DNA from: Myxococcales bacterium
GTDB lineage: Bacteria; Myxococcota_A; Polyangia; Polyangiales; JAFGIB01
Length of the DNA stretch: 64,000 bases
Assembly (NCBI GenBank): GCA_050118535.1
Contig: JASFKR010000002.1
Coordinates: 11,652 to 75,651 of the forward strand
Direction of reading: 5' to 3'
A program made the translations under genes and the position numbers. A model generated the notes under the pieces. The model was not told the DNA's origin. It did no database searches and saw only the letters and a program-made list of their open reading frames with translations. Each line of letters opens with the position of its first letter. Position 1 is the stretch's first letter. Shown here in pieces: positions 23,363 to 39,836 of the stretch.

Positions 23363-23845
23363 ATGCCTCGCCCCAACCCGCGATGTCGCCGGCCCGTGTC
23401 CCTCGGATTGCTGCTGGCCCTGGTCCCGATGCTTCAGGCGGCGTGGGGCTGCGACGCCTTTGACGAGGCGCTGCTCGAGGACGCCCGCAACGGCGATATC
23501 GACGGCGCTGTGGTCATGGACGGCGGCGGGGAGCCCGGCGCCGACGCTGCCATGGACGGGGCGTTGGACGTATGCATGGCGATGGACGAGGCCTGCAACG
23601 GCGAGGATGACGACTGCGACGGGCGCGTCGACGAAGACACGCGGCGGGTGTGCGAGGAGATCGTGCTCAACGCCGACACCGGCTGTTTCGTCACGCGCGA
23701 CGGACCGCGCTGCGTACGCATCGCCTGCTACGAAGGCTTTGCCGATCTCGACGGCAACCCCGCCAACGGTTGTGAGCCAATCCCCTGCGAGGGGGACGCG
23801 TGCGATGACGCGGGTGCCGATGACGACGCGGGTGCTACACCCTGA
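23363..23845 (+). CDS. Lipoprotein with a MopE-like putative metal-binding motif
   Basis: The signal/lipobox reads ...SLGLLLALVPMLQAAWGC. The CNGEDDDCDGRVDED motif is typical of myxobacterial putative metal-binding proteins. The start could be 23363 (ATG) or 23321 (TTG). Confidence 0.7.
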   Translation: MPRPNPRCRRPVSLGLLLALVPMLQAAWGCDAFDEALLEDARNGDIDGAVVMDGGGEPGADAAMDGALDVCMAMDEACNGEDDDCDGRVDEDTRRVCEEIVLNADTGCFVTRDGPRCVRIACYEGFADLDGNPANGCEPIPCEGDACDDAGADDDAGATP

Positions 23846-24290
23846 CGGTGAGCACCGGGCAAGCGGAGAGGCGCACCACCCGCTCGGCGACGCTCCCGAG
23901 CAACAGGTGGTCCAGCCCCGTGCGACCGTGGGTGCCCATGACGATCAGGTCCACGCCGAGGTCCTGCGCGTGCTCTACGATGGACTGGGCGACCGGCCCC
24001 TGGATCAGACGTGTCGACAGCTCCAGGCCCTCGGAGTCGACCTGGCTGGATAGCTTGTCGAGGCGGCTCTGCAACTCGCTCTCCACCGCCTCGCCGAAGT
24101 CGTAGGCCTCGCCCGGCTCGCCGGCTTCCGTCGCGATGCCGGTGGGCACGTTGTAGAGCGGCATCTCGTAGACGTGCACCACGTGCAATGCGGCGCCCAG
24201 GGACTTGGCCATGTCGATGCCATACTGAAGCGACTTGTCGGAGCCGGGGGAGAAGTCCACCGGGCAGAGGATTCGCGAGATGTTCGGCAA
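23835..24290 (-). CDS. Universal stress protein (UspA family)
   Basis: The TTG start at 24290 lies 6 nt after GGAGA. The protein reads PNISRILCPVDFS...LIVMGTHGRTGLDHLLLGSVAERVVRLSACPVLTV. Confidence 0.85.
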   Translation of the reverse strand: MPNISRILCPVDFSPGSDKSLQYGIDMAKSLGAALHVVHVYEMPLYNVPTGIATEAGEPGEAYDFGEAVESELQSRLDKLSSQVDSEGLELSTRLIQGPVAQSIVEHAQDLGVDLIVMGTHGRTGLDHLLLGSVAERVVRLSACPVLTVRV

Positions 24291-24339
24291 GTGAGGTCTC
24301 CGGATGGAAGCGCTGGGTCGCTGTGGTTGGGGTTGTCGT

Positions 24340-24819
24340 TCAATGCGCGCCGGGAACCACCGCTTGCGAGGGCTCATCGTTGGCGTGCCCCGGCGACGCG
24401 GTGTCGAGCGCCCGGGACAACGCCTCCAGCGCGTTGGTCGTCGTGAACACGCCCAGGATGCGGCTGCCCTCGACGACCACGGCGGAGCCAAGCTTACGCG
24501 AAGCCATGTGCCGCGCCACATCCGCGATGGGGGTGTCGAGGCTGACACAATAGGGGACGCCCGTCATGGCCTGCTCCACGGTCAGATCCTTCAGCTCGGT
24601 GCGGTCCACGGCGTCGACCAGGGCGATGTCGCGCTCGCTGATCACGCCGACCAGGCGATCGCCGTCGACCACGGGTAAATGACGCACGCCGAGCTCATCC
24701 ATACGATGGGCGGCCGATTCCAGGGTCCGGTCCATCGAGATGGTGTGGGGGGCGGGTGCCATGCATTTCCCGATCGTGGTGGGGGGCACGGGGGGCTCGG
24801 GGGCGGTAGGGCCGTCCAT
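24340..24819 (-). CDS. CBS-domain pair protein
   Basis: Two CBS repeats are present: HLPVVDGDRLVGVISERDI and GSAVVVEGSRILGVFTTTNAL. Confidence 0.85.
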   Translation of the reverse strand: MDGPTAPEPPVPPTTIGKCMAPAPHTISMDRTLESAAHRMDELGVRHLPVVDGDRLVGVISERDIALVDAVDRTELKDLTVEQAMTGVPYCVSLDTPIADVARHMASRKLGSAVVVEGSRILGVFTTTNALEALSRALDTASPGHANDEPSQAVVPGAH

Positions 24820-24823
24820 GGTG

Positions 24824-25693
24824 CTAGCGCTCCTCCGCGGCGGCGTCTGCCCGCGTGGCCGCGTGGTCGCCGGTTTGCTCAGGGGCTGCGGTGGGGCGAG
24901 ACGGCGGCATCACATAGCCGTCCTGCTGTGCGATCCAGCGCAGGATGTCGAGGGACGCCACGACGCCCAGCGGCCGGCCGTCCGCCGCCGTGACCACGAT
25001 GCGGTGCACCCCCTCGTAGGACATGAGGGCCGCGGCTCGGCTCAGCGACGCGTCCCGCATCAAGGAAAAGACGTGATGGGTCATCACGTCGCGCACGGTG
25101 GCCGACTTGATGTGGTCGCGATCGAATCCGCCCAGGTCGACGGGGTAGTGGATGGCGCCCTGCAACTCCACGGCCGCTTCGCCCTCCGCGTCACCGGCCT
25201 CGTAGTAGCGCTGCAACAGGTCGGTCTTGCTCACCAGCCCGATCGCCCGCTGCCCGTCGTCGACGACGGGGACCGCGCTGATTCCGCGCGACAGGAAGAT
25301 GCGGGTCAGATCCTCGATGGGCGTCTCCGGGGTCACGCACTGCACGGGCGTGGTCATGACCTCCTCGAGCAGCGTTTCCCGCGCGGACCGGGGCTCCACG
25401 GCAGGGGTCGGCCGGGCTCGCCTGCGGTCACTCCCGGACTCGGTCGCCTCGGACGTGCCGGCGGCGGTGCTCCAGGTACAGCGCAGGAAAGTCTCGCGGT
25501 CGGTCTCGTCGACGCACAGGCCCCGGCAATGTTCGCAGCCGCGGCATTCCTTCAGGGCGACGGCTCGGGTCCGCCGTGGGCAGAACACGGCGAGCACGCG
25601 AGCGTCGTCGGTTCGCTCGCTGCGCACACGCCGAAAGGTCACCCTCAGCTGGCGCGCACTATCGGAGTCTGTCGTCACTGCGTGTGCTCCCAT
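24824..25693 (-). CDS. Cys-cluster (CxxCxxCxxxC) N-terminal domain fused to a CBS pair
   Basis: KECRGCEHCRGLC is followed by two CBS repeats (ISAVPVVDDGQRAIGLVSKTDL, VHRIVVTAADGRPLGVVASLDIL). Alternative starts are the GTG at 25678 (8 nt after GGGAG) or the GTG at 25723. Confidence 0.75.
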   Translation of the reverse strand: MGAHAVTTDSDSARQLRVTFRRVRSERTDDARVLAVFCPRRTRAVALKECRGCEHCRGLCVDETDRETFLRCTWSTAAGTSEATESGSDRRRARPTPAVEPRSARETLLEEVMTTPVQCVTPETPIEDLTRIFLSRGISAVPVVDDGQRAIGLVSKTDLLQRYYEAGDAEGEAAVELQGAIHYPVDLGGFDRDHIKSATVRDVMTHHVFSLMRDASLSRAAALMSYEGVHRIVVTAADGRPLGVVASLDILRWIAQQDGYVMPPSRPTAAPEQTGDHAATRADAAAEER

Positions 25694-25744
25694 CCCGGAC
25701 GGGCGTGCCCGAGGCCCTGCCACCCGCCACCGTTGTCACGAGGT

Positions 25745-25760
25745 TGCAAGGGGCGTGCCG
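25745..25760 (-). promoter_or_regulatory. Candidate sigma-54 (-24/-12) promoter reading toward the CBS/USP genes
   Basis: The minus strand reads CGGCACG-CCCC-TTGCA, against the consensus TGGCACG-N4-TTGCW. GG and GC are correctly spaced. It lies about 50-80 nt upstream of the candidate starts. Confidence 0.5.
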
Positions 25761-25910
25761 GTCGCAGGGATGCCGTGACGGCCCGCTCTCCGAGGCGTTT
25801 CGCCACGCGCGAGGCCGGGTGCCGCGCATAAATTGCGCCGGTGGCTTGCGTGCGCGCAAAGCGATCGCCGGAGGGGCGGCGGATCCGCAGAAAGCCACGG
25901 AATTCGGGGT

Positions 25911-25926
25911 TGGCACGGGCCGTGCT
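25911..25926 (+). promoter_or_regulatory. Candidate sigma-54 (-24/-12) promoter upstream of the RpoH-like sigma gene
   Basis: TGGCACG-GGCC-GTGCT has one mismatch to TGGCACG-N4-TTGCW. It is followed by the RBS GAGGAGGG (25941-48) and the GTG at 25956. Confidence 0.55.
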
Positions 25927-25955
25927 CCAGCTCCAAGGGCGAGGAGGGATTGCCC

Positions 25956-26777
25956 GTGAAGCGAGACAATCGTGAGCTGGGACTGGAGTCCATGTTGAAG
26001 GCGGCCAAGGCGGCACCGATGCTTTCGGCGGAGGAGGAGCTGCGGCTGGCCAAGAAGGCGGCGAAGGGTTGCAGTCGATCCTTCGAGCTGCTTCTCAAGT
26101 CGCATCTGCGCCTGGTGGTCACCATTGCGCACGAGTTTTCCGCCTACGGCTTGCCCCTCGACGAGCTGGTCAGCGAGGGGTTGCTCGGCCTGGTGGAGGC
26201 GGCCCGCCGCTTCGACCACGGACGCGGCGTGCGTCTGGCGGCCTACGCGGCCTGGTGGATCCGCGCATACATGCGGCGCTACACCATTTCCAACCGCCGC
26301 ATCGTCCGCACGCCGTCGTCGCGCAGCGGGCGCAAGCTACTGGCGAACCTGCGCCGGACTCAGCGTGAGCTCGCGCAGCAGAAGGGCGAGCGCCCCGACA
26401 CGGAGACCGTCGCCAAGACGCTCGGCGTGGAAGTGCGGGACGTGGAGGAGATGGAGGCGGCCCTCAGCGGCCGCGACATTCCCTGCGGCTACGACCCGGA
26501 GGGACGCGCCGTGGATGTGGCCTCCGGCGGGCCCTCTCCCGAGGTCGAGGTGGCCGAAGCCGAGGAGCGGGCCTGGTCCATGAACGCCGTCAAGGGCGCC
26601 ATGCAGACCCTCTCCGAACGCGAGCAGCACATCCTGCAGATGCGCTATCTGACCGACGAGACCAACAGTCTGGCCTCGATCGGGCGCGGCATGGGCCTGT
26701 CTCGCGAGCGGGTACGCCAGCTGGAGCACCAGGCCCAGGCCAAAATGCGTAACGCCATCATGGCGTCGGTGGCCTGA
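25956..26777 (+). CDS. Alternative sigma factor, sigma-70 family, RpoH-like
   Basis: Region 2 reads LVVTIAHEFSAYGLPLDELVSEGLLGLVEAARRFD...AAYAAWWIRAYM. An RpoH-box-like segment reads GRKLLANLRR. Region 4 reads SLASIGRGMGLSRERVRQLEHQA. Confidence 0.85.
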   Translation: MKRDNRELGLESMLKAAKAAPMLSAEEELRLAKKAAKGCSRSFELLLKSHLRLVVTIAHEFSAYGLPLDELVSEGLLGLVEAARRFDHGRGVRLAAYAAWWIRAYMRRYTISNRRIVRTPSSRSGRKLLANLRRTQRELAQQKGERPDTETVAKTLGVEVRDVEEMEAALSGRDIPCGYDPEGRAVDVASGGPSPEVEVAEAEERAWSMNAVKGAMQTLSEREQHILQMRYLTDETNSLASIGRGMGLSRERVRQLEHQAQAKMRNAIMASVA

Positions 26778-26854: not shown

Positions 26855-28252
26855 ATGGGAGAAGCGCACACCCAGGCCCGGCAGGGCCGCGTGCTCGTCG
26901 TCGATGACGAGGCCAACGCCCGCGAGGCGCTGGTGGAGCTACTCGCCGACGAGGGCTACGAGACCGCCTCCGCCGCCGATGGCAGGCGGGCGCTGGAGGC
27001 CATGCATGACTTCGCGCCCCAGGTCGTCCTCACCGACCTGAAGATGCCCGGTCTCGATGGCATCGGCCTGCTGCAGAAGGCGCGCGAGCGCTACCCCCAC
27101 GTGGCCTTCGTGGTGATGACCGCCTTCGGCAGCATCGACACCGCCGTTGAAGCGATCAAGTCCGGCGCCGAGAACTACCTGACCAAGCCCGTCGATCTCG
27201 ATGCGCTCAGTGCCCTCGTGGCACGGGCGATGGAGAAGGCGAAGCTCTCGGAGGAGACCGCAAGCCTGCGCGAGCGGCTCGAGGCTCGCTTCACCCTGGG
27301 CAACATCGTGGGGGACCACCCCTCGATGCAGCGCCTCGCCAAGCTCGTTCACCAGGTGGCGCGCAGCCGCGCCTCGGTCCTCATTCACGGCGAGACCGGC
27401 ACTGGCAAGGAGCTGATCGCGGCTGCGATTCACCAGAGCTCGCCAGTGAGTCACGGGCCATTCGTTCGCCTCAATTGCGCCGCGCTGGCGGAGAACCTGC
27501 TCGAGTCCGAGCTCTTCGGTCACGAGAAGGGGGCGTTCACCGGTGCTGTCGGGCGCCGACAGGGCCGCTTCGAGCAGGCCGACGAGGGGACCCTCTTCCT
27601 GGACGAGGTCAGCGAGATCCCCGCGGCGTTGCAGGTGAAGCTGCTGCGCTTCCTGCAGGAGAAGGAGTTCGAGCGGGTCGGGGGCAACGAGACCATCCGG
27701 GTGCAGGTGCGCATCGTGGCCGCCACCAACAGGGATCTGGCCGAGCTCGTGGAAGCGGGCGAGTTTCGGGAAGATCTCTACTACCGCCTCAACGTGGTCC
27801 GGCTCGACGTGCCGCCGCTTCGGGCGCGGCGCAGCGATATCCCGCTGCTGGCTCACCACTTCATGCGCGAGCACGCCCGGGAGAACGGCTTCGACATCAA
27901 GGGCTTCACGCGGGAGGCACTGGACCTGCTGATGGCCTACCCCTGGCCCGGCAACGTGCGTGAGCTCGAGAACGCCATCGAGCGCGCCGTGGTCATGACC
28001 ACCGACGAAACCATCGGCGTCGAGCAGCTCCCCGAGCTGAGCACCACGCGGTCCGGCGATGACCTGCGCCTGCTGGTGCCCGGGGTGACCCTGGCCGAGC
28101 TCGAGCGCACCGCCATTCAACAGGCCCTGGACGCCTGCGCCGGCTCGACCAAGCAGGCCGCCGAGATGCTGGGCATCTCCCGGCGCAAGATCCAGTATCG
28201 TCTCAAGGAGTGGGAAGAGGACCCACCCCACGAGAGCAGCGAGAGCAGCTGA
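26855..28252 (+). CDS. Sigma-54-dependent response regulator (NtrC family: REC + AAA+ + Fis HTH)
   Basis: REC domain with VLTDLKMPGLDG; Walker A GETGTGKE; intact sigma-54 contact loop ESELFGHEKGAFTGA; C-terminal HTH TKQAAEMLGISRRKIQYRL. Confidence 0.95.
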   Translation: MGEAHTQARQGRVLVVDDEANAREALVELLADEGYETASAADGRRALEAMHDFAPQVVLTDLKMPGLDGIGLLQKARERYPHVAFVVMTAFGSIDTAVEAIKSGAENYLTKPVDLDALSALVARAMEKAKLSEETASLRERLEARFTLGNIVGDHPSMQRLAKLVHQVARSRASVLIHGETGTGKELIAAAIHQSSPVSHGPFVRLNCAALAENLLESELFGHEKGAFTGAVGRRQGRFEQADEGTLFLDEVSEIPAALQVKLLRFLQEKEFERVGGNETIRVQVRIVAATNRDLAELVEAGEFREDLYYRLNVVRLDVPPLRARRSDIPLLAHHFMREHARENGFDIKGFTREALDLLMAYPWPGNVRELENAIERAVVMTTDETIGVEQLPELSTTRSGDDLRLLVPGVTLAELERTAIQQALDACAGSTKQAAEMLGISRRKIQYRLKEWEEDPPHESSESS

Positions 28253-28258
28253 GGCAGC

Positions 28259-28705
28259 ATGTCCCAACTCAAGAAGATTCTGGTCGCGACCGACTTTTCC
28301 GACGTCTCCGAGCGGGCCCTCGCGCAAGCGGTTTCGCTGGCCCGGACGCTCGGCGCGAGCATCGACGTGGTCCACGTCTACGACGTGCCCGCCTTCAACC
28401 TCCCACTCGAGGGCGCCGTCATGTCGACCGCGGCCCACGAAGCAGAGCTGTCGGACCAGGCCCAGGCCTCCCTCGACGCGGTCATCGAGCGGCACGCCCA
28501 GGACGGGGTGGCCATGCACGGGACCCTGCGGCGCGGCGTGCCCTATCAGGAGATTGCGGCCTTCGCGGAGGCCGAGGGCGCGGATCTGATCGTCATCGGC
28601 ACCCACGGTCGTCAGGGTGCGTCCCACGTGCTGCTCGGCAGCGTGGCCGAGCGTGTCGTGCGCATCGCGAGTTGTCCGGTCATGACCGTCCCCGTCCGGG
28701 ACTGA
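28259..28705 (+). CDS. Universal stress protein (UspA family)
   Basis: The protein reads KKILVATDFSDVSERAL...LIVIGTHGRQGASHVLLGSVAERVVRIASCPVMTV. Confidence 0.9.
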   Translation: MSQLKKILVATDFSDVSERALAQAVSLARTLGASIDVVHVYDVPAFNLPLEGAVMSTAAHEAELSDQAQASLDAVIERHAQDGVAMHGTLRRGVPYQEIAAFAEAEGADLIVIGTHGRQGASHVLLGSVAERVVRIASCPVMTVPVRD

Positions 28706-28748: not shown

Positions 28749-29882
28749 CTACTGCGCCTCCGCGCCGCTCTGCCGCACCGGGACGTTGGCGGGGCGCTCG
28801 ATGTCGCCCTCCTTGATGGTGAAGCGGATCAGGGCCTTGAGCAGCACGTTGCGCTCCACGTTGCCCAGCACCGTCTTGAGATCCTCGTAGACCGAGGGGT
28901 CCACCACCAGCCCGCCCAGGGTGCCGCGTCCCTTCTCCACGTGCTCGACGATACGGTTGACGCGGGTCGCGGCCGTGTGGAGCTCGTCCAGGATCTTCGC
29001 CTCCTCCTCCTCGAAGATCAGGTCGTGCAGCAGCCCGTCGCCCTCGCGGACTTCGTGGACCACGGCGGCCAGCTCGGTGGCGGCCTTGCGCAGCTCCGCC
29101 ACGGTCGCCTTGCCGGTGTCGCCGTAGACCATCTCGTGGAGCATGCCGTCGCCGTGCTCGATCGCCGCGACGGTCTTGTCGATGCGCTCGGTGGCCGCGC
29201 GCATGCGCACGATGGCGATGCGCGTTTCCACCAGGATGCCTTCGATCTCGTCGGCGTACTTCTCGTCATACACGAGTCGATGGGCGACGCCGTCGCCCTC
29301 TTCCACCTCTTGCAGGATGTGGGCGACCGACTTGACGATTCGACCCACGTCGGTCCGGACCTCTTCGGTGGCCAGCTCGGCGATGGTTGCCTCCGCCGTA
29401 TCGGTCACGCGCTTGACCGCGGCCAGCGTGTCTTCGACCTGGTTGGCCAGGTGTTCCATGGATGGCGATTTGCGCGTGCCCAGGGTGGCGCCCTCCTCGA
29501 CGGGACCTGCATTGGCGCTGCCCAGGGTGATGTTGATCAGCTTGTCTCCGAGCAGGCCCTTGGAGTCGATGAAGGCCACCGAGTCCTGCCGGATGCGGCC
29601 CATGTAGCGCGACTTCACGGAGATCGTGACGCGCGCCTCCTTGCGCTGGAGCTGGTCGGGGAATTCGATGTGCGACACCGTGCCCACGTCCAGGCCGGCC
29701 AGGCGCACGGGAGCGCCTTCTACGAGGCCGTTGATGTTGTCGAAGTAGACGTAGAGCGTGGTCTTGCCCTCGAACAGGCCGCTCTTTTCTCCGATGGCGA
29801 AGATCGCCATACCGCCGATGAGCAGGGCCACAGCCAGGAAAATCCCGACGCGAATGGAGGTCTTTCGCTCGTCGGCGCTCAT
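28749..29882 (-). CDS. mlaD: MCE/MlaD-family protein with four C-terminal helical repeats
   Basis: The N-terminal TM reads IRVGIFLAVALLIGGMAIFAI. The MCE core reads YVYFDNINGLVEGAPVRLAGLDVGTVSHIEF. The C-terminus carries repeated ExGDGxLHxLVY-type units. Confidence 0.85.
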   Translation of the reverse strand: MSADERKTSIRVGIFLAVALLIGGMAIFAIGEKSGLFEGKTTLYVYFDNINGLVEGAPVRLAGLDVGTVSHIEFPDQLQRKEARVTISVKSRYMGRIRQDSVAFIDSKGLLGDKLINITLGSANAGPVEEGATLGTRKSPSMEHLANQVEDTLAAVKRVTDTAEATIAELATEEVRTDVGRIVKSVAHILQEVEEGDGVAHRLVYDEKYADEIEGILVETRIAIVRMRAATERIDKTVAAIEHGDGMLHEMVYGDTGKATVAELRKAATELAAVVHEVREGDGLLHDLIFEEEEAKILDELHTAATRVNRIVEHVEKGRGTLGGLVVDPSVYEDLKTVLGNVERNVLLKALIRFTIKEGDIERPANVPVRQSGAEAQ

Positions 29883-30646
29883 GCGGCCCTCGGATCGGTC
29901 TCCATCGCGGAGAGGAAGTCCCGCACGACCTGGTTATCGGAGTTGCGGAAGGCGGCGGTGTCGGCGACCTCGACGATGTGCTTGTCGGCGATCATGGCCA
30001 TCCGGTCGCTGACCATGAACGCGCTCGCCAGGTCGTGGGTGACCACGATGCTGGTCACCTCCAGGCGCTGATTGAGCTCGAGGATGAGCTCGCTGATGCG
30101 GCGGACGTTGATCGGGTCGAGGCCGGTCGTGGGCTCGTCGTAGAGCAGCACCTTGGGCGCCTCGGCGATGGCGCGGGCGAGGGCCACGCGCTTGCGCATG
30201 CCGCCCGAGAGCTCGGCGGGCATCTTGGCCTCGATGCCCGGCAGGCCGACCATCTCGAGCACCTCGGCGGCACGCGACGTGATCCGTTCCTCGTCGTCGA
30301 TGCCACGCTCGCGCAGGGGGTAGGCGATGTTGTCGTAGACCGTGAGCGAGTCGAAGAGGGCGCCGTTCTGGAAGACCATGCCCACCTTGCGGCGAACCGG
30401 CAGCATCTCGTCTTCCCCGTAGTTGCTGATGTCCTCGCCATCGACGGTCACGGTCCCTCGCTGCCAGCGCACCAGCCGCAGGATGGTCTTCAGCAGTACG
30501 CTCTTTCCGCAGCCGCTGCCGCCGACGAGCGTCAGCACTTCGCCCTCTTTCACGTCGAGGGTCACCCCGGCGAAGACCTGCAGCGCACCAAAGGCCAGGT
30601 GAACGTCTCGGACTCCGATGATGTTTGGCTCGCTCACTGTCCCCAT
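29879..30646 (-). CDS. mlaF: ABC transporter ATP-binding protein (MlaF-like)
   Basis: I trimmed the track ORF to the ATG at 30646 (MGTVSEPNIIGVRDV). Walker A GGSGCGKS, signature LSGGMRKR and Walker B LLYDEPTTGLD are present. Its stop overlaps the mlaD start. Confidence 0.9.
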   Translation of the reverse strand: MGTVSEPNIIGVRDVHLAFGALQVFAGVTLDVKEGEVLTLVGGSGCGKSVLLKTILRLVRWQRGTVTVDGEDISNYGEDEMLPVRRKVGMVFQNGALFDSLTVYDNIAYPLRERGIDDEERITSRAAEVLEMVGLPGIEAKMPAELSGGMRKRVALARAIAEAPKVLLYDEPTTGLDPINVRRISELILELNQRLEVTSIVVTHDLASAFMVSDRMAMIADKHIVEVADTAAFRNSDNQVVRDFLSAMETDPRAA

Positions 30647-31446
30647 CCCGTCGCGATGAAGAGCTTGGTCAGGAAGAAGTCGCTGACCAGGGTCACCACC
30701 GAGGTGATGACCACCGTCTTCGTCGTGGATCGCCCCACGCCCACGGTGCCGCCACGCGTGTTCATGCCCAGATAGCACGCCACGATGGCGATGTTGAACG
30801 CGAAGAAGACCGTCTTGGTCATGCCGGAGATGAAGTCCTCGACGGTGGTGGAGCGCAGGGCTGCGTTGATGAAATAGCTCGCGCGGACATCCGGCTCGAG
30901 AGCCGCCACGCCGGCGCCGGCGAAAACGCCCAGGACCACCGCCAGGGAGCTCATCAGCGGCAGGACCAGCACGGTGGCCAGCACGCGCGGCACGACGAGC
31001 TTCTTGACCGGATCGGCGCCCAGCGCTCGGATGGCGTCGATCTGCTCGGTGACCTTCATGGAGCCGAGCTCGGCCGCGATGCCGGCGCCCACGCGCCCGC
31101 CCACCATCAACGCCGTCATCACCGGGCCCAGCTCCCGGGCCAGCGTTACGCCGACCGCGTTGCCCACCCACTCCTTGGCGCCGAAGCGGGCGAGCTGCAC
31201 CGTGAACTGCACGGTGATCACCATGGAGGAGAAAATCGCCGTCAGGATGACCACGCTCATGGAGCGCACCCCGATCGACTCCATCTGTTCGATCAGCGTG
31301 CGCAACCCCAGTGGTCGGCGCAGGGTCTGGCGCACGACCTGGGCGCTGAGGACTCCCACCCCGCCGAGGGTCTCCACGGCGGTGACCGCACGCTCGGCCA
31401 GGAGCGTGGGCGAAAAGAGGTCGGCAAGAGCGCTCGGTCGGCTCAT
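30634..31446 (-). CDS. mlaE: MlaE-family ABC permease
   Basis: I trimmed the track ORF to the ATG at 31446 (MSRPSALADLF...). Conserved MlaE stretches are ARELGPVMTALMVGGRVGAGIAAELGSMKVTEQIDAIRALG. Confidence 0.9.
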   Translation of the reverse strand: MSRPSALADLFSPTLLAERAVTAVETLGGVGVLSAQVVRQTLRRPLGLRTLIEQMESIGVRSMSVVILTAIFSSMVITVQFTVQLARFGAKEWVGNAVGVTLARELGPVMTALMVGGRVGAGIAAELGSMKVTEQIDAIRALGADPVKKLVVPRVLATVLVLPLMSSLAVVLGVFAGAGVAALEPDVRASYFINAALRSTTVEDFISGMTKTVFFAFNIAIVACYLGMNTRGGTVGVGRSTTKTVVITSVVTLVSDFFLTKLFIATGWGQ

Positions 31447-31535
31447 CGGGAAGGCCCTCGAGCGGATTGTGGCACGGCGCGGTGGCGGCGCACGAATCGA
31501 CTGGTTGCAGTCACATGGTAACTTTGCGAATGGGG

Positions 31536-33035
31536 TTAGCCGGCGCGCTCGAGGGTGACCCGCACCCGGGTGCCGACGCCGGGCTCGGAGCTGACCTGGA
31601 TGCTTCCGCCATGGCGATCGACGATGCGCTTGACGATGGTGAGGCCCAGCCCGCTGCCCGCTTCCTTCGAGGTGACGAAGGGCACGAACAGTCGATCGGC
31701 CACCTCCGGCGGGATGCCCGGACCGTCGTCTTCCACGCTCAGCTCCACGCGAGCGCTGCTGGTCGGCTCGCAGGCCAGCTTGATGCGCCCGTGTCCGCGC
31801 GCCCGCATGGCATCGAGGGCGTTCATGATCAGGTTGACCAGCACCTGCTTGAGCATCGAGCGGTCGCCGCGCACCGCGAGCTCCTCGTCGCTGATCCGAC
31901 GCGTCAAGCGGACCCCGGCGGCGCTCGCGGCGGGCTCCTCGAGCGCGATCACCTCGTCGACCAGCGCGCACAGGCGCACGTCCTTGAGCTCCAGCTTGCG
32001 TGGTCGAGCCAGGTTGAGGAAGTCGTTGAGCAGGTTGGTCAGCCGGTCGAGCTCCTCGCGAACGATGCGTGCGCGGCCCTCGATTCGTTCACGCGCGTCG
32101 GCGTCCTGCAGCTTGCGCGCCCCGCGGCTGAGCAACTCGAGCTGCAGGGCCGCTGCGTTGAGGGGGTTGCGTATCTCGTGCGCGAGTCCCGCGGTCAGGG
32201 TCGCGATGGAGGCCATGGCCTCCGCCTCCGCAGCGCGCCGCTCCAGGTCGAGCTGATCGGTGAGATCCTCGCCCACGGCCAGCAGAGTGGGCGCGCGCAC
32301 ATCGGCGGCCGTGGAGCGGGTGATGTTCCAGCGCACCGTGCGCGTGGTGCCCTCGCGCGTGCGCAAGGGCAGCTCGATGCCGGTGACCGCCTGGTCGTTG
32401 CGGGCCTTTTCCAGGGCCTCGTCCAGTCTTTTCCGGGCGGCGTCCGATCCCAGCAGCTGGATCAGCGGTCGGCCGAGCACCTCGTGGGGTGGCCAGCCGG
32501 TGCAGGCGGCGGCCGAGCGGTTCCACATCCGGACCTCGCCGGCTTCATCGAGGGCCACGATATACGCCTCCGAGCTGTCGACGACGTTGCGGTGGAGGGC
32601 CTCGGAGCGGGAGAGCTCGCGCTCCAGCCGGGTCCGGTCGCGACGCAACTGCACCTGGCCCAGGGCGCGCTCCCCCAGCGACAGCAGCTCTGCCGGGTCG
32701 AAGGGCTTCTGCACGTAGGCGAAGGCCGCCTGACCGACGGCGGCGATCGCCGTATCGAGCGTGGCGTTGGCGGTCATCAGAATGATCTCGGCGTCCTCGC
32801 AGCGCGCCTGGAGTCGGGCGGCGATGTCCACCCCGCTCTCGTTGGGTAGGCGGATGTCGACCACGGCCAGGTCGAATGGGCGCTGCTCGGCGGCGGCGCA
32901 GGCCCCATCGCCGTCGCGCTCCACGTGGGTCGAGTATCCGGCGCCAGCGAAGAGCTCGGCCACGTTCTCGGCCAGATCGGCGTTGTCGTCGACCACGAGC
33001 ACGTGCTGGGGGCCAGGCGGTACGCTTCCTGCCAT
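31536..33035 (-). CDS. Hybrid sensor: N-terminal receiver + PAS + histidine kinase
   Basis: ATG at 33035 (MAGSVPPGPQHVLVVDDN). REC domain with FDLAVVDIRLP; PAS region ...YIVALDEAGEVRMWNRSAAACTGW; H-box HEIRNPLN; ATPase G-boxes DDGPGI and GSGLGL. Confidence 0.9.
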   Translation of the reverse strand: MAGSVPPGPQHVLVVDDNADLAENVAELFAGAGYSTHVERDGDGACAAAEQRPFDLAVVDIRLPNESGVDIAARLQARCEDAEIILMTANATLDTAIAAVGQAAFAYVQKPFDPAELLSLGERALGQVQLRRDRTRLERELSRSEALHRNVVDSSEAYIVALDEAGEVRMWNRSAAACTGWPPHEVLGRPLIQLLGSDAARKRLDEALEKARNDQAVTGIELPLRTREGTTRTVRWNITRSTAADVRAPTLLAVGEDLTDQLDLERRAAEAEAMASIATLTAGLAHEIRNPLNAAALQLELLSRGARKLQDADARERIEGRARIVREELDRLTNLLNDFLNLARPRKLELKDVRLCALVDEVIALEEPAASAAGVRLTRRISDEELAVRGDRSMLKQVLVNLIMNALDAMRARGHGRIKLACEPTSSARVELSVEDDGPGIPPEVADRLFVPFVTSKEAGSGLGLTIVKRIVDRHGGSIQVSSEPGVGTRVRVTLERAG

Positions 33036-33100
33036 CCGCCTATCAAAGCACACCGGAGGCCGGCGCGGCAGCACCCTTTCACGGCCCTTGCAGCCCGGTG

Positions 33101-33129: not shown

Positions 33130-34287
33130 ATGGACGAAGAGCTCTTCGACGAGATGAAGCGCTACGTGGGCTTCGGGGGCGACGACGAGGCGCTTCTGCG
33201 CGATGCGGGACCGCTACTCGAGCCCCATTTCGCACGCGTGGTGGACGACTTCTACGGGCGCGTCGAGCGCCACCCGGGGGCGCTGGCGGTGATCCGGGAG
33301 GGGCAGGCGCAGGTGGATCGCCTCAAGAAGACGCTGATCCGCTGGCTTCGGGAGTTCTTCGAGGGGCCGTGGGATCAGGCCTACTTCGAGCACCGCGAGC
33401 GCATCGGACGCATGCACGTCCGCATCCAGCTCCCGCAGCAGTACAACTTCACCGCCATGAACGTGATTCGCGGCCATCTCACGGACCTGGTCGCACGGCT
33501 GACCCCCGACTCGTCCCTGGCGGCGCGCAGGGTCCGCGCGATCGATCGGCTGATGGATCTGGAGCTGGCGATCGTGCTCCACACCTACCGCGAGGATTAC
33601 GACTCCCAGCTGCAGCGGACCGAGCGGCTCGCCACCTTCGGCCAGATGACCTCGACCATCGGGCACGAGCTGCGCAACCCGCTGGGGGTGATCGAGTCGT
33701 CGGTCTACCTGCTGCGCCGCCGCGTGGGCGAGGACCCGGCGGTGGTGCGGCACCTGGACAAGATCCAGGGCCAGGTGGCTCGCTCCAACCGCATCATCGG
33801 CAGCATGCTCGACATCGTGCGCGACAGGCCGCCCAACCGCGGGCGGGTGCTACCCGTCGTGGCTGCCGATCGTGCGGTGGCCGACGTGCTCGAGCGCCGC
33901 GGCTTCGGCGTCGAGCTGGTGGCCGAGGCGAAGGTCGCCCCCGTGCTCGTCGACCCGCAGCAGCTCCACCAGGTGCTGGTGAACCTGCTGGACAACGCCG
34001 TGGACGCCATCGGCGGGGAAGGGCGCGTCCGCGTGCGCGTCGGCGCGGCGGGCGCAAGCCGCGTGGCGCTGGTGGTGAGCGACTCCGGACCCGGCATCCA
34101 CCCCGACGTCCGTGCGCGGCTCTTCGAGCCCCTGGTCACCACCAAGGACGCGGGGGTGGGGCTGGGCCTGGCACTGTGCCGCAAGCTGGTGGATGCGGCT
34201 GGCGGGACGCTCGACGTGGTGTCCCCTGGGCAGGACGATCTCCCCGGCGCGGTCTTCCGGGTGACGCTGGAGCGGGCGCCCGAGTAG
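33130..34287 (+). CDS. Globin-coupled sensor histidine kinase
   Basis: ATG at 33130. The N-terminal sensor-globin pattern reads VVDDFYGRVERHP...RLKKTLIRWL...HRERIGRMHVRIQLPQQYNFTAM, with a distal Tyr and a proximal His candidate. H-box HELRNPLG, then DSGPGI and GVGLGL follow. Confidence 0.8.
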   Translation: MDEELFDEMKRYVGFGGDDEALLRDAGPLLEPHFARVVDDFYGRVERHPGALAVIREGQAQVDRLKKTLIRWLREFFEGPWDQAYFEHRERIGRMHVRIQLPQQYNFTAMNVIRGHLTDLVARLTPDSSLAARRVRAIDRLMDLELAIVLHTYREDYDSQLQRTERLATFGQMTSTIGHELRNPLGVIESSVYLLRRRVGEDPAVVRHLDKIQGQVARSNRIIGSMLDIVRDRPPNRGRVLPVVAADRAVADVLERRGFGVELVAEAKVAPVLVDPQQLHQVLVNLLDNAVDAIGGEGRVRVRVGAAGASRVALVVSDSGPGIHPDVRARLFEPLVTTKDAGVGLGLALCRKLVDAAGGTLDVVSPGQDDLPGAVFRVTLERAPE

Positions 34288-34372: not shown

Positions 34373-34786
34373 ATGACCGAAGCCCGGGACGACACCGTCG
34401 GCGCGTGGATGACGCCGTGCCCCGTGACCGTCGCCTTCGACGCCAGTCTGGCGGAGGCGGCGGAGCTGATGGGAGAGCATGCCGTGCGGCATCTGCCCGT
34501 GGTCCGGGATGGGCACGCGGTGGGCGTCCTGTCGGATCGGGACATCGCGGCGGTGGAGAGCCTGCCCATCCAGGGGGATCGGGAGGTGCGCGTGGCGGAG
34601 GCGATGACGCCGGTGCCCTACGCCGTGCCCGCCTCCATGGCCCTGTCGCGCGTGGCCCGGATGATGGCTCGGCAGCACTACGGCTGCGCCGTGGTCACCG
34701 GCGCGGACGACGACCGGGTGCTCGGGGTCTTCACGGTGACCGACGCGCTTCGGGCCCTGGCCGAGGTGGCCGTGGGCAGGCGCTGA
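34373..34786 (+). CDS. CBS-domain pair protein
   Basis: Two CBS repeats are present: VRHLPVVRDGHAVGVLSDRDI and GCAVVTGADDDRVLGVFTVTDAL. Confidence 0.85.
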   Translation: MTEARDDTVGAWMTPCPVTVAFDASLAEAAELMGEHAVRHLPVVRDGHAVGVLSDRDIAAVESLPIQGDREVRVAEAMTPVPYAVPASMALSRVARMMARQHYGCAVVTGADDDRVLGVFTVTDALRALAEVAVGRR

Positions 34787-34819: not shown

Positions 34820-35542
34820 TCACATGGTTTCGAGGCCGGCGCGGTCGACCAGGGCCACGCCCTCGGGGGTCTTTTCGACCAGCCCCTGCTTGCCGAAGTC
34901 GCGCATCACCCGGCAGACCGATTCGTGGCGGATGGACAGCAGGGCAGCGAGGTCGCGCTGCAGGAACTCGGCGGGGATGATCGTGGTCTGCTCGTCGCCG
35001 GGCCGCAGGGTGTCGGACAGGGTGCAGAGCAGTGCCGCCACCTTGGCGGCCGCGCCCGAGCGCCCGCGGGCGTCGGCCAACCGCTCCATGCGGCTGATGG
35101 CTTCGCTGTCGAGCTGATGGACCTGCACCGCCGTGGGGCCGCCTTCGTTCAGGCCCCGCTCGATGGTCGCGTCGTCGCACAGGCAAACCAGGGCGCGCGT
35201 GACGGCGTAGCCCGATACGCTGCTCTCTGCGGCGCTCGACGAGTCGAGCGGGAAGCAGCACCCCGGTCCGACCGCGTCGATTGCGGTGGTGCGGCCGGCG
35301 GCGTCGGTGCGCTGCCGGATCAGGTAGCCTCGGCGGACGATCGCGAATCCGTAGCGGCCGAGCCAGGAGGCGGGCAGGTCGGAGCGCGCCTCCACGGCCA
35401 GGGAATCAAAACCGCAGGCCGCCGAGCCTTCTCCGAGCAGGCCTTCCAGCACGTTCCGACCCAGCGCCGGACAACCGACGCAATGTTGCGATGAGGTGTG
35501 CTTGTGAAGAACTCGACCGGCTTCGCTGCTGTTGATGTCCAC
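34820..35542 (-). CDS. Crp/Fnr-family transcriptional regulator with N-terminal Cys residues
   Basis: The GTG at 35542 lies 8 nt after GGGAGG. The C-terminal HTH reads QRDLAALLSIRHESVCRVMRDFGKQGLV. The N-terminus carries QHCVGCPALG plus further Cys (AACGF, GPGCCF). Confidence 0.7.
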   Translation of the reverse strand: MDINSSEAGRVLHKHTSSQHCVGCPALGRNVLEGLLGEGSAACGFDSLAVEARSDLPASWLGRYGFAIVRRGYLIRQRTDAAGRTTAIDAVGPGCCFPLDSSSAAESSVSGYAVTRALVCLCDDATIERGLNEGGPTAVQVHQLDSEAISRMERLADARGRSGAAAKVAALLCTLSDTLRPGDEQTTIIPAEFLQRDLAALLSIRHESVCRVMRDFGKQGLVEKTPEGVALVDRAGLETM

Positions 35543-35696: not shown

Positions 35697-35912
35697 ATGA
35701 GTGTTTTCAAGCTGGTGAACGAACATGTGGATGCGCTCCTGAGCGCTGCGCAACAGGCTGGGCACGATCGTGAGGCGGTGGCCCGCGCCCTTCTGGATCG
35801 GGTCATGGGGATCTACAGGGAGTCGCGCGGGGTCGCGGACATCCGCTGCGAGCTCGACTTCATCTCCGAAACCCTCGATGACGACGAGGAGTATCCGTTC
35901 ATGAGGCCTTGA
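35697..35912 (+). CDS. Small acidic hypothetical protein (71 aa)
   Basis: The ATG follows GGGGACGAAAG. The composition looks coding, but I recognise no motif. Confidence 0.4.
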   Translation: MSVFKLVNEHVDALLSAAQQAGHDREAVARALLDRVMGIYRESRGVADIRCELDFISETLDDDEEYPFMRP

Positions 35913-36009
35913 TCATCGTCTCCTGCGCCTGCGATCGAGGCATTTTTCCCGGATTTTCAGTGGTTTAGCTTGCATGCCGGGAGGGAGGCCTTAGGTTGAT
36001 CTCAGACAA

Positions 36010-36858
36010 ATGAAGTGGTCGTACCGAATCGGCACGTTTTTCGGCATCGACGTGCGCGTGCATCTGACGTTCCTGCTCCTGTGGGCCTGGCTCGGCTGGG
36101 GAGCGTACGCCGACACGGGCAGCATGGTTTCGGCGATGCTCGCCATGGGGTTCGTGGCTGCCCTCTTTCTGTTCGTGACCATGCACGAGTACGGGCACGC
36201 GCTGACGGCCGCCCGGTTCGGGATCAGGACGCGCCAGATCACGCTCTATCCGATCGGCGGCGTGGCCATGCTCGAAAGCATGCCGCGCTCGCCCCGTGAG
36301 CAGTTGCTGGTCGCCCTCGCAGGCCCCGCCGTTAATTTCGTCCTCGCGGCCCTGATCGCGGGGCTGATGGTGGCTCTCGGCGTCGATCCGTTCAGCCCGG
36401 AGCTGGGCTCCGGCTCTCGCGGCCTGCTGGGGGCGCTGCTGTGGGCGAACCTGGTGATGGGCACCTTCAATTTGTTGCCCGCGCTGCCGATGGACGGCGG
36501 GCGCGTGCTGCGAGCGCTTCTCGAGCTGCGCATGGGGCCCCTGCGCTCCACTCAGGTTGCGGGCCGCGTGGCGGGGTGGCTGGCCCTGGTCATGGGCCTG
36601 TTCGCGCTCTACTCGGACCACATGATGCTGCTCGCCATCGCCGCCATGGTCTGGATGATGAGCCGCATGGAGGTGGCCATGGCGCAACGGCAGGCCGCGG
36701 CCCGGGCCATGTCGCAGCAGTTCGACCACGCGCTTTGGGGCAGCGCCCCCGGGGGCCCGGTGCCGCCCGCGCGGTCGCCGTCGACGACCCAGGGGATGCG
36801 CGTGGTGGCCGAGGTGGTCGACACCCCGGACGGACCGCGCATCCGCTACCTGCGCTGA
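36010..36858 (+). CDS. Site-2 protease family (M50) membrane metalloprotease
   Basis: The HExxH motif HEYGHAL lies in a TM helix. The downstream NLLPALPMDGG motif is present. It is a multi-pass membrane protein. Confidence 0.85.
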   Translation: MKWSYRIGTFFGIDVRVHLTFLLLWAWLGWGAYADTGSMVSAMLAMGFVAALFLFVTMHEYGHALTAARFGIRTRQITLYPIGGVAMLESMPRSPREQLLVALAGPAVNFVLAALIAGLMVALGVDPFSPELGSGSRGLLGALLWANLVMGTFNLLPALPMDGGRVLRALLELRMGPLRSTQVAGRVAGWLALVMGLFALYSDHMMLLAIAAMVWMMSRMEVAMAQRQAAARAMSQQFDHALWGSAPGGPVPPARSPSTTQGMRVVAEVVDTPDGPRIRYLR

Positions 36859-36862
36859 CCGG

Positions 36863-38811: not shown

Positions 38812-38918
38812 GACTCGCTCCAGGCTGCCCGTCGGAGGGGGGCAGCTCGAGGAGGGTGCCGGCGCAGCGAGCCCGCCCCGGAGCGCATCCGGGACAGGCC
38901 CACCGCGACGCCGTCGTC

Positions 38919-39338
38919 TCAGTCGAGGTCGTCGAGGGCCTTCTGGAACCGGCCAGCGTGGGACTTCTCGGCCTTGGCCAGGGTCTCGAACCACTCGGCC
39001 ACGTCGTCGAAGCCCTCCTCGCGGGCGGTCTTGGCCATCGAGGGGTACATGTCGGTGTACTCGTGGGTCTCGCCCGCCACCGCGGCCGCCAGGTTCTTGT
39101 CGGTCGTGCCGATGGGCTTGCCGGTCGCCGGATCGCCCACCTTCTTGAGGTAGTCGAGGTGACCGTGGGCGTGACCGGTCTCACCGTCCGCCGTGTCGCG
39201 GAAGAGGCCCGCCACGTCCGGGTAGCCCTCCACGTCGGCGATCTTGGAGAAGTAGAGGTAGCGACGGTTCGCCTGGGACTCGCCCGCGAACGCGTCCTTG
39301 AGGTTCTGCTCGGTCTTGGAGCCCTTCAAATCAGCCAT
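38919..39338 (-). CDS. Rubrerythrin-family (ferritin-like diiron) protein without a rubredoxin domain
   Basis: The ATG at 39338 follows GGAGAG. The protein reads [30 protein letters not shown]...GETGHAHGH...[14 protein letters not shown]...AEKSHAGRF, carrying the E...ExxH pairs. Confidence 0.85.
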
Positions 39339-39372
39339 TGGGATCTCTCCTGTTCGTGTCAGCGCATACTGC

Positions 39373-39810
39373 CTACACTCGCGCGGCCCGCGCGCACTGC
39401 GCGCACAGCCCACGGAAGACTCGTTCCACGCGGCGCACCCGAAACCCGCTGGGCCCGCGCGCCTCCGGCGCTGCCGCCGCGTTGCTCACGGGTGGCGCGA
39501 CGTCCTGCACGCAGCCGCAGCCATCGCAGACCGCGTGGTCGTGGGGCGCGATGTTGGGATCGAAGCGGCTGGAGCCCCCCAGCTCCAGGCGGCGGCAGGC
39601 CCCGATGGCAGTCAGGGCGCCCAGCGTGTTGTAGACGGTGGCCAGCGCCACGTCCGGGAACCGTGCTTCCAGTCGCTGGTGCAGCTGCTGGGCCGTCGGG
39701 TGGCTCGGGTCACCCGCGAGGCAATCCACCAGAGCCAGCCGCTGCCGGGTGAGCTTCAGCCCCGCGCTGCGCAGCGCACCGACCAGCCGGTCCTGGGAGC
39801 ATTCCGACAT
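39373..39810 (-). CDS. Fur-family regulator, PerR-like by context
   Basis: The protein has [14 protein letters not shown]...[18 protein letters not shown] and a C-terminal CAQC (two CxxC pairs). It sits immediately upstream of rubrerythrin. Confidence 0.85.
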
Positions 39811-39813
39811 GCG

Positions 39814-39836
39814 TAGATTGGAACGCTTCTAATCTA
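39814..39836. promoter_or_regulatory. AT-rich inverted repeat directly upstream of the Fur/PerR-like gene (candidate auto-operator)
   Basis: TAGATTGGAA-cgc-TTCTAATCTA matches 9 of 10 arm positions and starts 4 nt upstream of the ATG at 39810. Confidence 0.4.

Follow-up and report, generated by a model that had tools for sequence, protein, structure and literature searches.

A predicted variant of the NmpRSTU oxygen-sensing system beside a PerR-like peroxide-defence operon in a Myxococcales genome

Does a dense run of sensing and defence genes on a myxobacterial chromosome constitute one regulon, or do separate systems lie side by side? The question is posed by positions 23835-39836 of a 64,000-nucleotide stretch of a Myxococcales bacterium genome (contig JASFKR010000002.1; the whole stretch is called the window below), which an initial annotation had described as a 16-kb island of oxygen, redox and energy-stress genes, perhaps coordinated as a single low-oxygen or oxidative-stress regulon. 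We consider it likely that the 16 kb are composite: Part A (~24.8-35.6 kb) would be a supra-operonic variant of NmpRSTU, the haem-based oxygen-sensing system of Myxococcus xanthus, and Part B (36.9-39.8 kb) a PerR peroxide-defence operon of a known kind. The proposed low-oxygen module survives in Part A, in that its universal stress protein (USP), CBS, haem-kinase and sigma-54 activator genes are homologous to NmpRSTU; the 16 kb do not form one unit.

A haem-sensing relay resembling NmpRSTU

The reference for Part A is the haem oxygen-sensing system described in M. xanthus (Bretl 2018, PMC6211767; McAllister 2025, PMC11841059). Its sensor is the protoglobin kinase NmpU, which is active in the presence of O2 or haem; NmpS, a REC-HisKA-CA hybrid kinase, is turned off on phosphorylation by NmpU; NmpT, a protein with two receiver domains (2xREC) encoded between nmpU and nmpS, is a proposed accessory phosphosink; and NmpR, an NtrC-like enhancer-binding protein (EBP), is phosphorylated by NmpS at limiting O2 and activated by hypoxia (PMC11841059). 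Three genes of the window correspond to the sensor, the hybrid kinase and the activator:

33130..34287, + strand: globin-coupled histidine kinase (GcHK), Protoglobin-HisKA-HATPase, homologue of NmpU and AfGcHK (Pfam Protoglobin E=7e-37)
31536..33038 (right-hand end ~33038), − strand: REC-PAS-HisKA-HATPase hybrid kinase, analogue of NmpS, divergent from the GcHK gene (Pfam)
26855..28252, + strand: NmpR-like, NtrC-type sigma-54 activator (EBP), REC-AAA+-HTH_8 (Pfam)

Domain content and catalytic residues could be observed directly, the phospho-acceptor and ATPase motifs being intact in all three proteins. GcHK has a distal Tyr42, a proximal His96 and an H-box His179; in the alignment with the AfGcHK globin structure (PDB 5OHE, E=3e-41), Tyr45 falls on Y42 and His99 on H96, so that the window kinase shares the haem ligands of the known sensors, whose residue roles have been worked out in AfGcHK (PMC8697598). 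The REC-PAS kinase, called as 488-499 aa in other assemblies, carries the phospho-residues D92 and H318, and the EBP retains the receiver D61, a Walker A motif (GETGTGKE) and the GAFTGA loop. For comparison, loci were collected with GcHK as anchor and one genome per GTDB species, which gave 63 Myxococcota loci (L numbers below denote these and other compared loci) whose full-length GcHK relatives are 40-67% identical. In 37 of these the EBP adjacent to GcHK is 51-72% identical to the window EBP, and the window EBP shares with this NmpR-like EBP cluster a recognition-helix (HTH) signature, GST..AA..LGIS.RKIQYRL, that differs in outlier EBPs. A REC-PAS histidine kinase occupies the nmpS position in L003 and L014.

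The window nevertheless departs from the M. xanthus arrangement. The hybrid kinase in the NmpS role contains a PAS domain that NmpS does not have, and its gene runs divergently to the sensor gene instead of following it. NmpT is also lacking: in the window, L001, L004, L013, L094 and L095, no gene of this kind turned up at the locus, whereas typical loci such as L019 have one.

We infer the direction of phosphoryl flow, the logic by which hypoxia means ON, and co-transcription from experiments in M. xanthus and Anaeromyxobacter. O2-bound GcHK would autophosphorylate His179, by homology with AfGcHK and NmpU, and would then phosphorylate the receiver of the REC-PAS kinase at D92, keeping that kinase off; as O2 falls, GcHK would go off, and the REC-PAS kinase, to which its PAS domain may supply a second input, would autophosphorylate at H318 and phosphorylate D61 of the EBP. 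The activated EBP would bind two operators, S1 and S2 (25824-25868), and open two divergent sigma-54 promoters. Leftward, the predicted output is a CBS protein with an Fe-S-type domain, a second CBS protein and a USP, products that probably are proteins of nucleotide, energy and redox status. Rightward, it would be an RpoH-like sigma factor and probably, via read-through, the EBP itself and a second USP; read-through to the EBP would imply positive autoregulation and a cascade from sigma-54 to a sigma-32-like factor, and the sigma factor as an output would imply a second regulatory tier.

A different signal or a different logic, with the relay sensing redox, NO or CO in place of O2, or with the relay ON when O2 is present and GcHK feeding the EBP directly, bypassing an inverting hybrid kinase, strikes us as unlikely. 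Activity of AfGcHK is indeed known for its Fe(III) and Fe(II)-CO forms as well (PMC8697598), and a locus with a PAS domain in its hybrid kinase and no NmpT could be wired differently; yet genetics and biochemistry in M. xanthus show an inverting NmpU-NmpS logic and hypoxic induction (PMC11841059), and the window proteins retain both the distal Tyr and the REC-HisKA-CA core.

The divergent control region and its predicted targets

The NmpR recognition site in M. xanthus is GCGCA-N5-TGCGC; ahead of sigma-54 promoters it usually occurs twice, with the copies 14-15 bp apart. Validated members of the NmpR regulon are nmpUTS, pilR, a USP, a CBS protein whose gene opens the nmpR operon, cbb3 oxidase with a P-type ATPase, and hemN with hemerythrin (PMC11841059). 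Paired sites of the same type, with a 15-bp gap and ahead of sigma-54 promoters, are predicted from the sequence of one divergent intergenic region of the window:

25745..25760, − strand: sigma-54-type -24/-12 promoter CGGCACGCCCCTTGCA, facing the CBS2x-CBS1-USP1 operon
25824..25868, no strand: candidate enhancer with operators S1 and S2 (NmpR consensus)
25911..25926, + strand: sigma-54-type promoter TGGCACGGGCCGTGCT, facing the sigma-EBP-USP2 genes

S1 (GCGCATAAATTGCGC, 25824-25838) is one of only two perfect matches to GCGCA-N5-TGCGC in the window; S2 (GCGCAAAGCGATCGC, 25854-25868) begins exactly 15 bp past it and has two mismatches. Promoters were scored against TGGCAC-N5-TTGCW with at most one mismatch (≤1), a level reached at only five sites in the 64 kb, two of which flank the operator pair and face outward; CGGCACGCCCCTTGCA differs from this consensus at one position, and the TGGCAC-N5-GTGCT form of the rightward TGGCACGGGCCGTGCT is found also in L094, L095 and L013. 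Directly observed conservation extends to the whole layout, since S1, S2 and both sigma-54 elements are kept in the orthologous intergenic regions of L013, L094 and L095 (four genomes with the window), including the uncommon -12 sequence GTGCT and, in S2, the half-site ATCGC. Among 400 first-order Markov simulations, the two-sided operator and promoter layout arose in 0/400, and a perfect operator with at least one correctly oriented promoter in 0.5%. The window-wide count of the NmpR consensus is at chance (17 vs 16.5 expected), so that the 25824 site is meaningful only because of its intergenic context and cross-species conservation, not because of window-wide counts.

The geometry is also that of other loci: operator positions are +87/+57 in the window against +86/+56 in L047, operator density across related loci is 2.4-fold higher in intergenic than in genic DNA, and the operators there, which precede EBP, GcHK, CBS and USP genes, commonly form pairs at ~30-bp intervals and are followed by a sigma-54 element after 56-98 bp. 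The initial annotation had proposed wiring through sigma-54, which the conserved operator and its two promoters bear out as far as sequence can; the search for shared operators that it recommended turned up the NmpR-type pair in this divergent region alone among ~12 intergenic regions, neither an NmpR operator nor a good sigma-54 element being found in the others of the block. Close to the end of the alanine racemase gene are two further sigma-54-like sites, each with a single mismatch (48549-48564 and 48681-48696, − strand); no EBP operator was found near them.

The predicted direct targets and the genes transcribed with them are as follows:

24824..25723, − strand: CBS2x, CBS-pair protein with an N-terminal Cys-rich domain (Pfam CBS x2)
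24340..24819, − strand: CBS1, CBS-pair protein (Pfam CBS x2, E=3.5e-22)
23835..24290, − strand: USP1, final gene of the CBS-CBS-USP operon (Pfam Usp E=1e-33)
25956..26777, + strand: RpoH-like (group 3, sigma-32-type) alternative sigma factor, ~273 aa (Pfam Sigma70 r1_2/r2/r3/r4)
28259..28705, + strand: USP2, single-domain USP, 7 bp behind the EBP gene (Pfam Usp E=1.6e-35)

CBS2x is the first gene of the predicted sigma-54-driven operon, and USP1 lies on the same strand as both CBS genes, with short gaps between them. The Cys-rich domain of CBS2x (FCPRR...ECRxCxxCRGLCVD...LRC) holds six cysteines, with C60/63/66/70 in a C-x2-C-x2-C-x3-C series; it is kept in L094 and L095 and absent in L013, where a CBS1 homologue stands in the equivalent position. 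The most probable start of the sigma gene is GTG 25956, which is preceded by a ribosome-binding site, GAGGAGG, at 25942-25948; its product is called as 261-280 aa in other assemblies and scores 207-213 bits against the NCBIfam sigma-32 models, under their equivalog cut-offs. USP2 has the equivalent position in L094 and L095.

The likeness to the M. xanthus regulon therefore extends from the relay, with its protoglobin histidine kinase, hybrid REC-HisKA-CA kinase and NtrC-type activator of shared HTH signature, to CBS-pair and USP genes as direct targets and to an activator gene within the operon that it controls itself, both of which are predicted here. The differences are that the activator operon of the window is headed by the RpoH-like sigma gene and not by a CBS gene, that the CBS target bears an Fe-S-type Cys domain, and that no operator was detected ahead of the sensor gene, in contrast to nmpU of M. 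xanthus, which has one upstream.

Conservation of the block across Myxococcota

To set the GcHK-anchored loci against a background, 17 kinase-domain-only matches in other phyla served as controls, and neighbours were found both by tblastn of all window proteins and by unbiased all-against-all clustering of called open reading frames (ORFs), with agreeing results. Within 10 kb of GcHK, an EBP occurs in 37 of the 63 loci, a USP in 23-30 and a CBS pair in 18-20, and these are the only broadly recurrent neighbour families; the 17 controls contain 0 EBP, 1 USP and 0 CBS. The commonest layout, with domains assigned by Pfam, is GcHK > 235-aa (2xREC) > 360-390-aa (REC-HisKA-HATPase) > EBP<, which, as GcHK > 2xREC > REC-HisKA-CA > EBP<, matches the published nmpU-T-S/nmpR, and the Anaeromyxobacter-type L050 (USP > CBS > GcHK > 2xREC > REC-HK > EBP<) fits the description of Anaeromyxobacter in PMC11841059. 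Other recurrent neighbours are CcoNO, CcoP, CcoG/FixG, a CcoI-type P-type ATPase, DsbD_2 and HemN, along with a canonical Crp/Fnr regulator, a triple USP, DksA and cytochrome c'; across loci, the recurrent neighbour set of GcHK is the published NmpR regulon, physically clustered. The cbb3 genes (ccoNO, ccoP, ccoG, ccoI, DsbD_2) and hemN stand beside GcHK in L005-L012, L017, L020, L030, L035, L038 and L044, often with NmpR-type operators; the window locus, by contrast, contains neither cbb3 oxidase nor hemN genes.

The remaining genes to the left of Part B are these:

28749..31446, − strand: MlaD (28749-29882), MlaF (29879-30646) and MlaE (30634-31446) (Pfam MlaD, ABC_tran, MlaE)
34373..34786, + strand: CBS3, CBS-pair protein, downstream of the GcHK gene (Pfam)
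34820..35542, − strand: FnrL, divergent CRP/FNR-fold regulator, 240 aa (Pfam HTH_Crp_2 only)
35697..35912, + strand: 71-aa ORF (MSVFKLVNEHVDALL...), divergent from FnrL and upstream of M50, with no Pfam family
36010..36858, + strand: M50-family intramembrane metalloprotease, with HExxH and no PDZ or CBS domain (Pfam Peptidase_M50)

The first pass, over GTDB representatives, had suggested that only a four-family core is conserved. This view was dropped as too pessimistic, the nearest relatives lying on short contigs, and look-ups anchored on the rare FnrL protein corrected it. In at least two other genomes of uncultured Myxococcota, represented by the long contigs L094 and L095 (FnrL 69-72% identical), the series Fe-S-CBS <> sigma-EBP-USP >< MlaD-F-E-RecPasHK <> GcHK-CBS >< FnrL has the identical order and orientation, ~11 genes at ~70% protein identity, and L001 and L013 retain parts of it. 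A metagenome scan with the FnrL alignment returned mostly contigs <5 kb; in metagenome contigs FnrL adjoins the USP2 orthologue (L081, L082), while it adjoins MlaE in L083 and L085 and the small ORF, CBS and GcHK in L084. In L097/L098 (58%), only FnrL-MlaEFD-sigma is kept, adjoining a C39 ABC exporter like that of the left flank of the window. Contigs of the same strain (L093, JGI 3300042731, Logan SRR11704904; GcHK 100% identical) were used for gene-model checks only and not as independent evidence.

By gene order in these genomes, itself a direct observation, the ~24.8-35.6 kb region is a clade-conserved supra-operonic block, and the synteny across Myxococcota that the initial annotation had asked about holds for the left ~11-12 kb, in the same order in L094/L095, and fails for the PerR operon, absent from related loci. 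An accidental clustering, in which functionally unrelated neighbours merely reflect the abundance of signalling genes in large myxobacterial genomes, is hardly credible against this background: Myxococcota do encode very many histidine kinases, EBPs, USPs and CBS proteins (PMC11841059), and the arrangement varies outside this clade, but the order of ~11 genes is held at ~70% protein identity in L094/L095, the same gene set re-associates, rearranged, in L081-L085, operator and promoters are conserved, and the controls from other phyla lack these neighbours.

The composition of the block bears on a further alternative. Genes were called by GC3 frame plot (third-position GC) and annotated with Pfam and NCBIfam, and every gene that the initial annotation had listed, MlaE/F/D included, is present at its place. 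Sensing and defence domains occur in 14/19 genes within the block and in 0/~38 outside it (Fisher p = 1.5e-9, a post hoc figure for this window), a density which on that count exceeds chance in the window; the ~38 others encode a C39 ABC exporter, a TetR regulator, DUF1592/DUF1501 proteins, Ser/Thr kinases, glycosyltransferases and others, and none has a USP, CBS, HK/REC, EBP, sigma, Fur, Crp or rubrerythrin domain. The sharp functional borders of the block could suggest a horizontally acquired island with stress-defence cargo, a reading to which the rubrerythrin genes of Part B, present here, missing in relatives and of a type for which spread by horizontal gene transfer has been proposed (PMC5114695), would add. 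It is nonetheless very unlikely, since there is no break in GC or skew, no tRNA, integrase or transposase, and the left-flank C39 exporter has a syntenic counterpart in L098; local acquisition is conceivable for the 3-kb perR-rbr operon at most. GC content is ~70% across the whole window and flat, at 0.67-0.70, over the block borders, without a GC or skew discontinuity; scans of the window found no tRNA and no Rfam match, and no window gene scanned contains an integrase or transposase domain. 'Island' is in this sense a misnomer, and a compositional or mobile island was rejected, given the flat GC, the lack of tRNA and integrase domain, and the synteny of block and left flank in relatives. A scan for consensus terminators and sigma-70 promoters gave counts at chance level and was uninformative on operon borders.

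Among the embedded genes, CBS3 adjoins GcHK in L004, L033, L094 and L095 and lies upstream of it in Anaeromyxobacter-type and Nannocystaceae-type loci. MlaEFD, an ABC lipid-transport operon with mlaE 90 bp downstream of the REC-PAS kinase gene, has the equivalent position in L001, L094 and L095 and adjoins FnrL in L083, L085 and L097. With the Cys4 CRP/FNR-fold regulator, it is embedded in the window locus, a further difference from NmpRSTU. When the RecPasHK<>GcHK and RecPasHK->MlaE intergenic regions were footprinted, no element proved common to all genomes (the L095 coordinates being partly imprecise). A sigma-70-like element, CGATTGAAA-N17/18-AAGAT, stands ahead of mlaE in four relatives (L083, L097, L095, L094) and is degenerate in the window (31447-31535); in L083 and L097, where it comes directly after FnrL, it is set within a palindrome, CCTGCAAT-N8-ATTGCAGG, that may be an FnrL operator. 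The 71-aa ORF, overlooked in the initial annotation, has been annotated as a gene in two other assemblies, and a homologue of 58% identity stands beside FnrL in L033/L084; in L094, L095, L097 and L098, the place that the ORF has in the window is taken by a gene, divergent from FnrL, for an LMF1-like membrane protein of 520-533 aa (PF06762/PF25179). FnrL, CBS3 and MlaEFD are conserved members of the block, and M50, close to FnrL only in L001 and L095, weakly so.

The Fnr-like regulator had been credited with N-terminal cysteines. The true start of FnrL is GTG 35542, the 328-aa ORF being over-extended by 88 codons; the first four cysteines of that ORF are consequently spurious, and the true N-terminus does have conserved ones. 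C21, C24, C43 and C120 co-vary, and the recognition helix reads RHESVCR. The family comprises 136 clusters among 5.8 billion proteins; the four cysteines occur together in ~50/70 members and are jointly lost in one sub-group, which includes P0046 from L097/L098, a locus without GcHK. That locus keeps FnrL-MlaEFD-sigma and lacks GcHK, the hybrid kinase, EBP, USP and CBS. The pattern hints that the Cys4 site co-evolves with the haem sensor.

An AlphaFold2 (AF2) model of FnrL (pLDDT 87.7, pTM 0.82) contains a beta-roll, a long helix and a winged HTH, and the top 50 Foldseek matches to it all belong to the CRP/FNR family, including Aliivibrio fischeri FNR (probability 1.00); by the model, FnrL has a CRP/FNR fold with a C-terminal winged HTH. 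The [4Fe-4S] ligands of FNR are Cys 20, 23, 29 and 122. Compared with FNR of E. coli and A. fischeri, FnrL shares the beta-roll, dimerisation helix and winged HTH, has cysteines at 21, 24, 43 and 120, similar in position to the FNR ligands, and reads E-S-V-C-R in the recognition helix where FNR has E-T-V-S-R. FnrL is a candidate for a second Fe-S O2 sensor. It differs in its low identity (~16%, Foldseek), in a cNMP-binding domain that Pfam misses, in the spacing of the third Cys and in a sub-group of its family that lacks every one of the four Cys; moreover, no TTGAT-N4-ATCAA box was identified in the window locus. The search for that box gave 9 matches against 3.9 expected, none convincingly placed in the locus, and one FNR-box-like site at 35996 overlaps the M50 ribosome-binding site.

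Several points weigh against the assignment of Part A to an Nmp-type supra-operon. The relay of the window organism is supported by sequence and homology, and orthology of the EBP to NmpR is a deduction from synteny, identity and HTH signature. Because NmpT is missing, a PAS domain has been added and the NmpS analogue is divergent, phosphoryl flow could differ from that in M. xanthus. The gap between the sigma and EBP genes (77 bp, 82% GC) might house a terminator or a separate promoter. The 3' half-site of S2, ATCGC, deviates from the M. xanthus consensus, although the variant is itself conserved; no NmpR operator was found upstream of the window GcHK gene; and Mla, FnrL and M50 are tied to the relay by conserved position alone, with no operator linking them.

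The PerR operon, known systems and implications

To the right of M50, four genes on one strand make up Part B:

36863-37444, − strand: DUF3501 (Pfam E=6e-59)
37441-38811, − strand: RFO, GlpC/HdrD-like CCG Fe-S oxidoreductase (CCG and Fer4 domains; GlpC-like NCBIfam match)
38919-39338, − strand: rubrerythrin (Rbr), aerobic-type, 139 aa, start at 39338 (Pfam Rubrerythrin only, no rubredoxin domain)
39373-39810, − strand: perR, PerR-like protein of the Fur family (Pfam FUR)

The best NCBIfam match of the PerR-like protein is PerR, at 83 bits against a cut-off of 180. The regulatory site of Bacillus subtilis PerR, a protein of the Fur fold with a Cys4 structural Zn site, is His37/Asp85/His91/His93/Asp104; read by eye, the window protein has H37, D84, H90, H92 and D103, together with C95, C98, C136 and C139 as a Cys4 Zn site. 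Its upstream region (39811-39875) has 52% GC, vs 70% for the genome, and contains a perfect inverted repeat, TAGATT-N11-AATCTA, a candidate PerR/Fur-type operator.

A trio of Rbr, RFO and DUF3501 is a known cluster, found in 185 genomes (Cardenas 2016, PMC5114695), in whose spread horizontal gene transfer has been proposed and which has an independent evolutionary history; from the Deltaproteobacteria, the same paper places only 'some few members' in this rubrerythrin group, and it mentions neither Myxococcota nor PerR (PMC5114695). The window genes match it in their rubredoxin-less rubrerythrin, COG0247 GlpC/HdrD-like CCG Fe-S protein and DUF3501 (PF12007), adjacent and on one strand, and differ in that a PerR-like Fur-family gene heads the operon. 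None of the 63 GcHK-anchored loci and no FnrL-anchored locus contains the PerR-Rbr-RFO-DUF3501 operon, not even L095, where 10 kb of sequence are available on that side; because the operon is absent from every related locus, its position beside the block looks incidental. A look for the context of DUF3501 in annotated plasmids met only unannotated Burkholderia chromids. Part B would then be an autonomous PerR-controlled operon of aerobic-type rubrerythrin, RFO and DUF3501 for peroxide reduction, adjacent to the block in this genome only.

That all 16 kb, with the PerR operon, M50 and Mla, belong to one regulon under the EBP, the alternative sigma factor and Fnr/PerR regulators is distinctly improbable. 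The coherent theme and strong sensing and defence enrichment in the window would favour it, M50 is near FnrL in L001 and L095, and an EBP-controlled RpoH-like sigma factor could in principle reach more genes. Set against this, the PerR operon is missing from all the loci anchored on either gene, NmpR operator and sigma-54 elements are confined to one intergenic region, no FNR box was found, and the Rbr trio has a dedicated regulator and a history of its own with horizontal transfer (PMC5114695). The composite of an Nmp-type block and a separate PerR operon thus remains the preferred reading.

The flanks hold further features. Cys-rich, apparently secreted proteins without a clear Pfam family border the block on both sides (23363-23845, + strand; 39876-40919, − strand), and another, with a weak Dickkopf_N-like match, lies further upstream (16575-17894, + strand). 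Directly to the right (40907-44599, + strand), a DUF1592/DUF1588 (PSD/PSCyt-type) protein gene is followed by one for a DUF1501 protein, a gene pair best known from Planctomycetota. On the left, the C39-peptidase bacteriocin-type ABC exporter (20379-22610, + strand) flanks the block; in L098 (7396-9588), such an exporter adjoins the RpoH-like sigma gene, and its presence in both places implies a larger-scale synteny of the chromosomal neighbourhood.

As judged from its proteins, the window locus is largely homologous to NmpRSTU and not to DosR, the mycobacterial regulon that the initial annotation had invoked and to which the likeness is one of analogy. In the DosS/DosT-DosR system, a haem-based sensor kinase works with a regulator under which many USPs and the CBS-pair protein HRP1 are induced under hypoxia; DosS/T sense via GAF-bound haem, and DosR is a NarL/LuxR-type regulator at sigma-70 promoters. 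A haem-based sensor kinase with USP and CBS-pair genes is common to both, but the sensor of the window is a globin and the regulator a sigma-54 EBP, with no homologous component, and neither a GAF domain (as in DosS/T) nor a LuxR/NarL-type HTH (as in DosR) was found by Pfam in any block gene. The link through USPs has also been drawn in the literature (PMC11841059).

A more far-reaching scheme is possible but doubtful. In it, the Nmp sensor would have been rewired, in this clade, into an oxygen-sensing supra-operon of three tiers: an NmpT-less relay of two kinases with PAS input would drive a sigma-54-to-RpoH-like cascade that controls a second-tier hypoxia or dormancy regulon, possibly including MlaEFD; the Fe-S CBS protein would couple redox and adenylate status; and FnrL would represent a previously unrecognised Cys4 family acting as a second Fe-S O2 sensor that co-evolves with GcHK, with Cys-less variants in GcHK-less loci.

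In summary, the locus is a variant of an already-known system, a homologue of Nmp, and it is set apart by the lack of NmpT, the divergent PAS kinase, the sigma-headed EBP operon, the Fe-S CBS protein, and the association with Mla and FnrL. The 2018 and 2025 papers defined the Nmp system in M. xanthus alone, and their authors explicitly left open its targets in other myxobacteria (PMC6211767, PMC11841059). Comparison of the 63 loci indicates that the core of sensor, hybrid kinase and EBP, with CBS and USP targets, is widespread in Myxococcota, that the cbb3, hemN, USP and CBS members of the regulon are in many lineages physically clustered around the sensor, and that the NmpR-type operator is conserved far beyond Myxococcus. 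This overturns nothing; it is useful for the annotation of metagenome-assembled genomes and for the choice of targets in work on hypoxia and dormancy of soil and sediment myxobacteria. The variant also offers testable ideas for their biology, namely that sigma-54 may control an RpoH-like sigma factor in a cascade, that an Fe-S-type CBS protein may take part, that a Cys4 FNR-like family may lose its cysteines where GcHK is absent, and that oxygen sensing and Mla outer-membrane lipid transport may share a conserved link.

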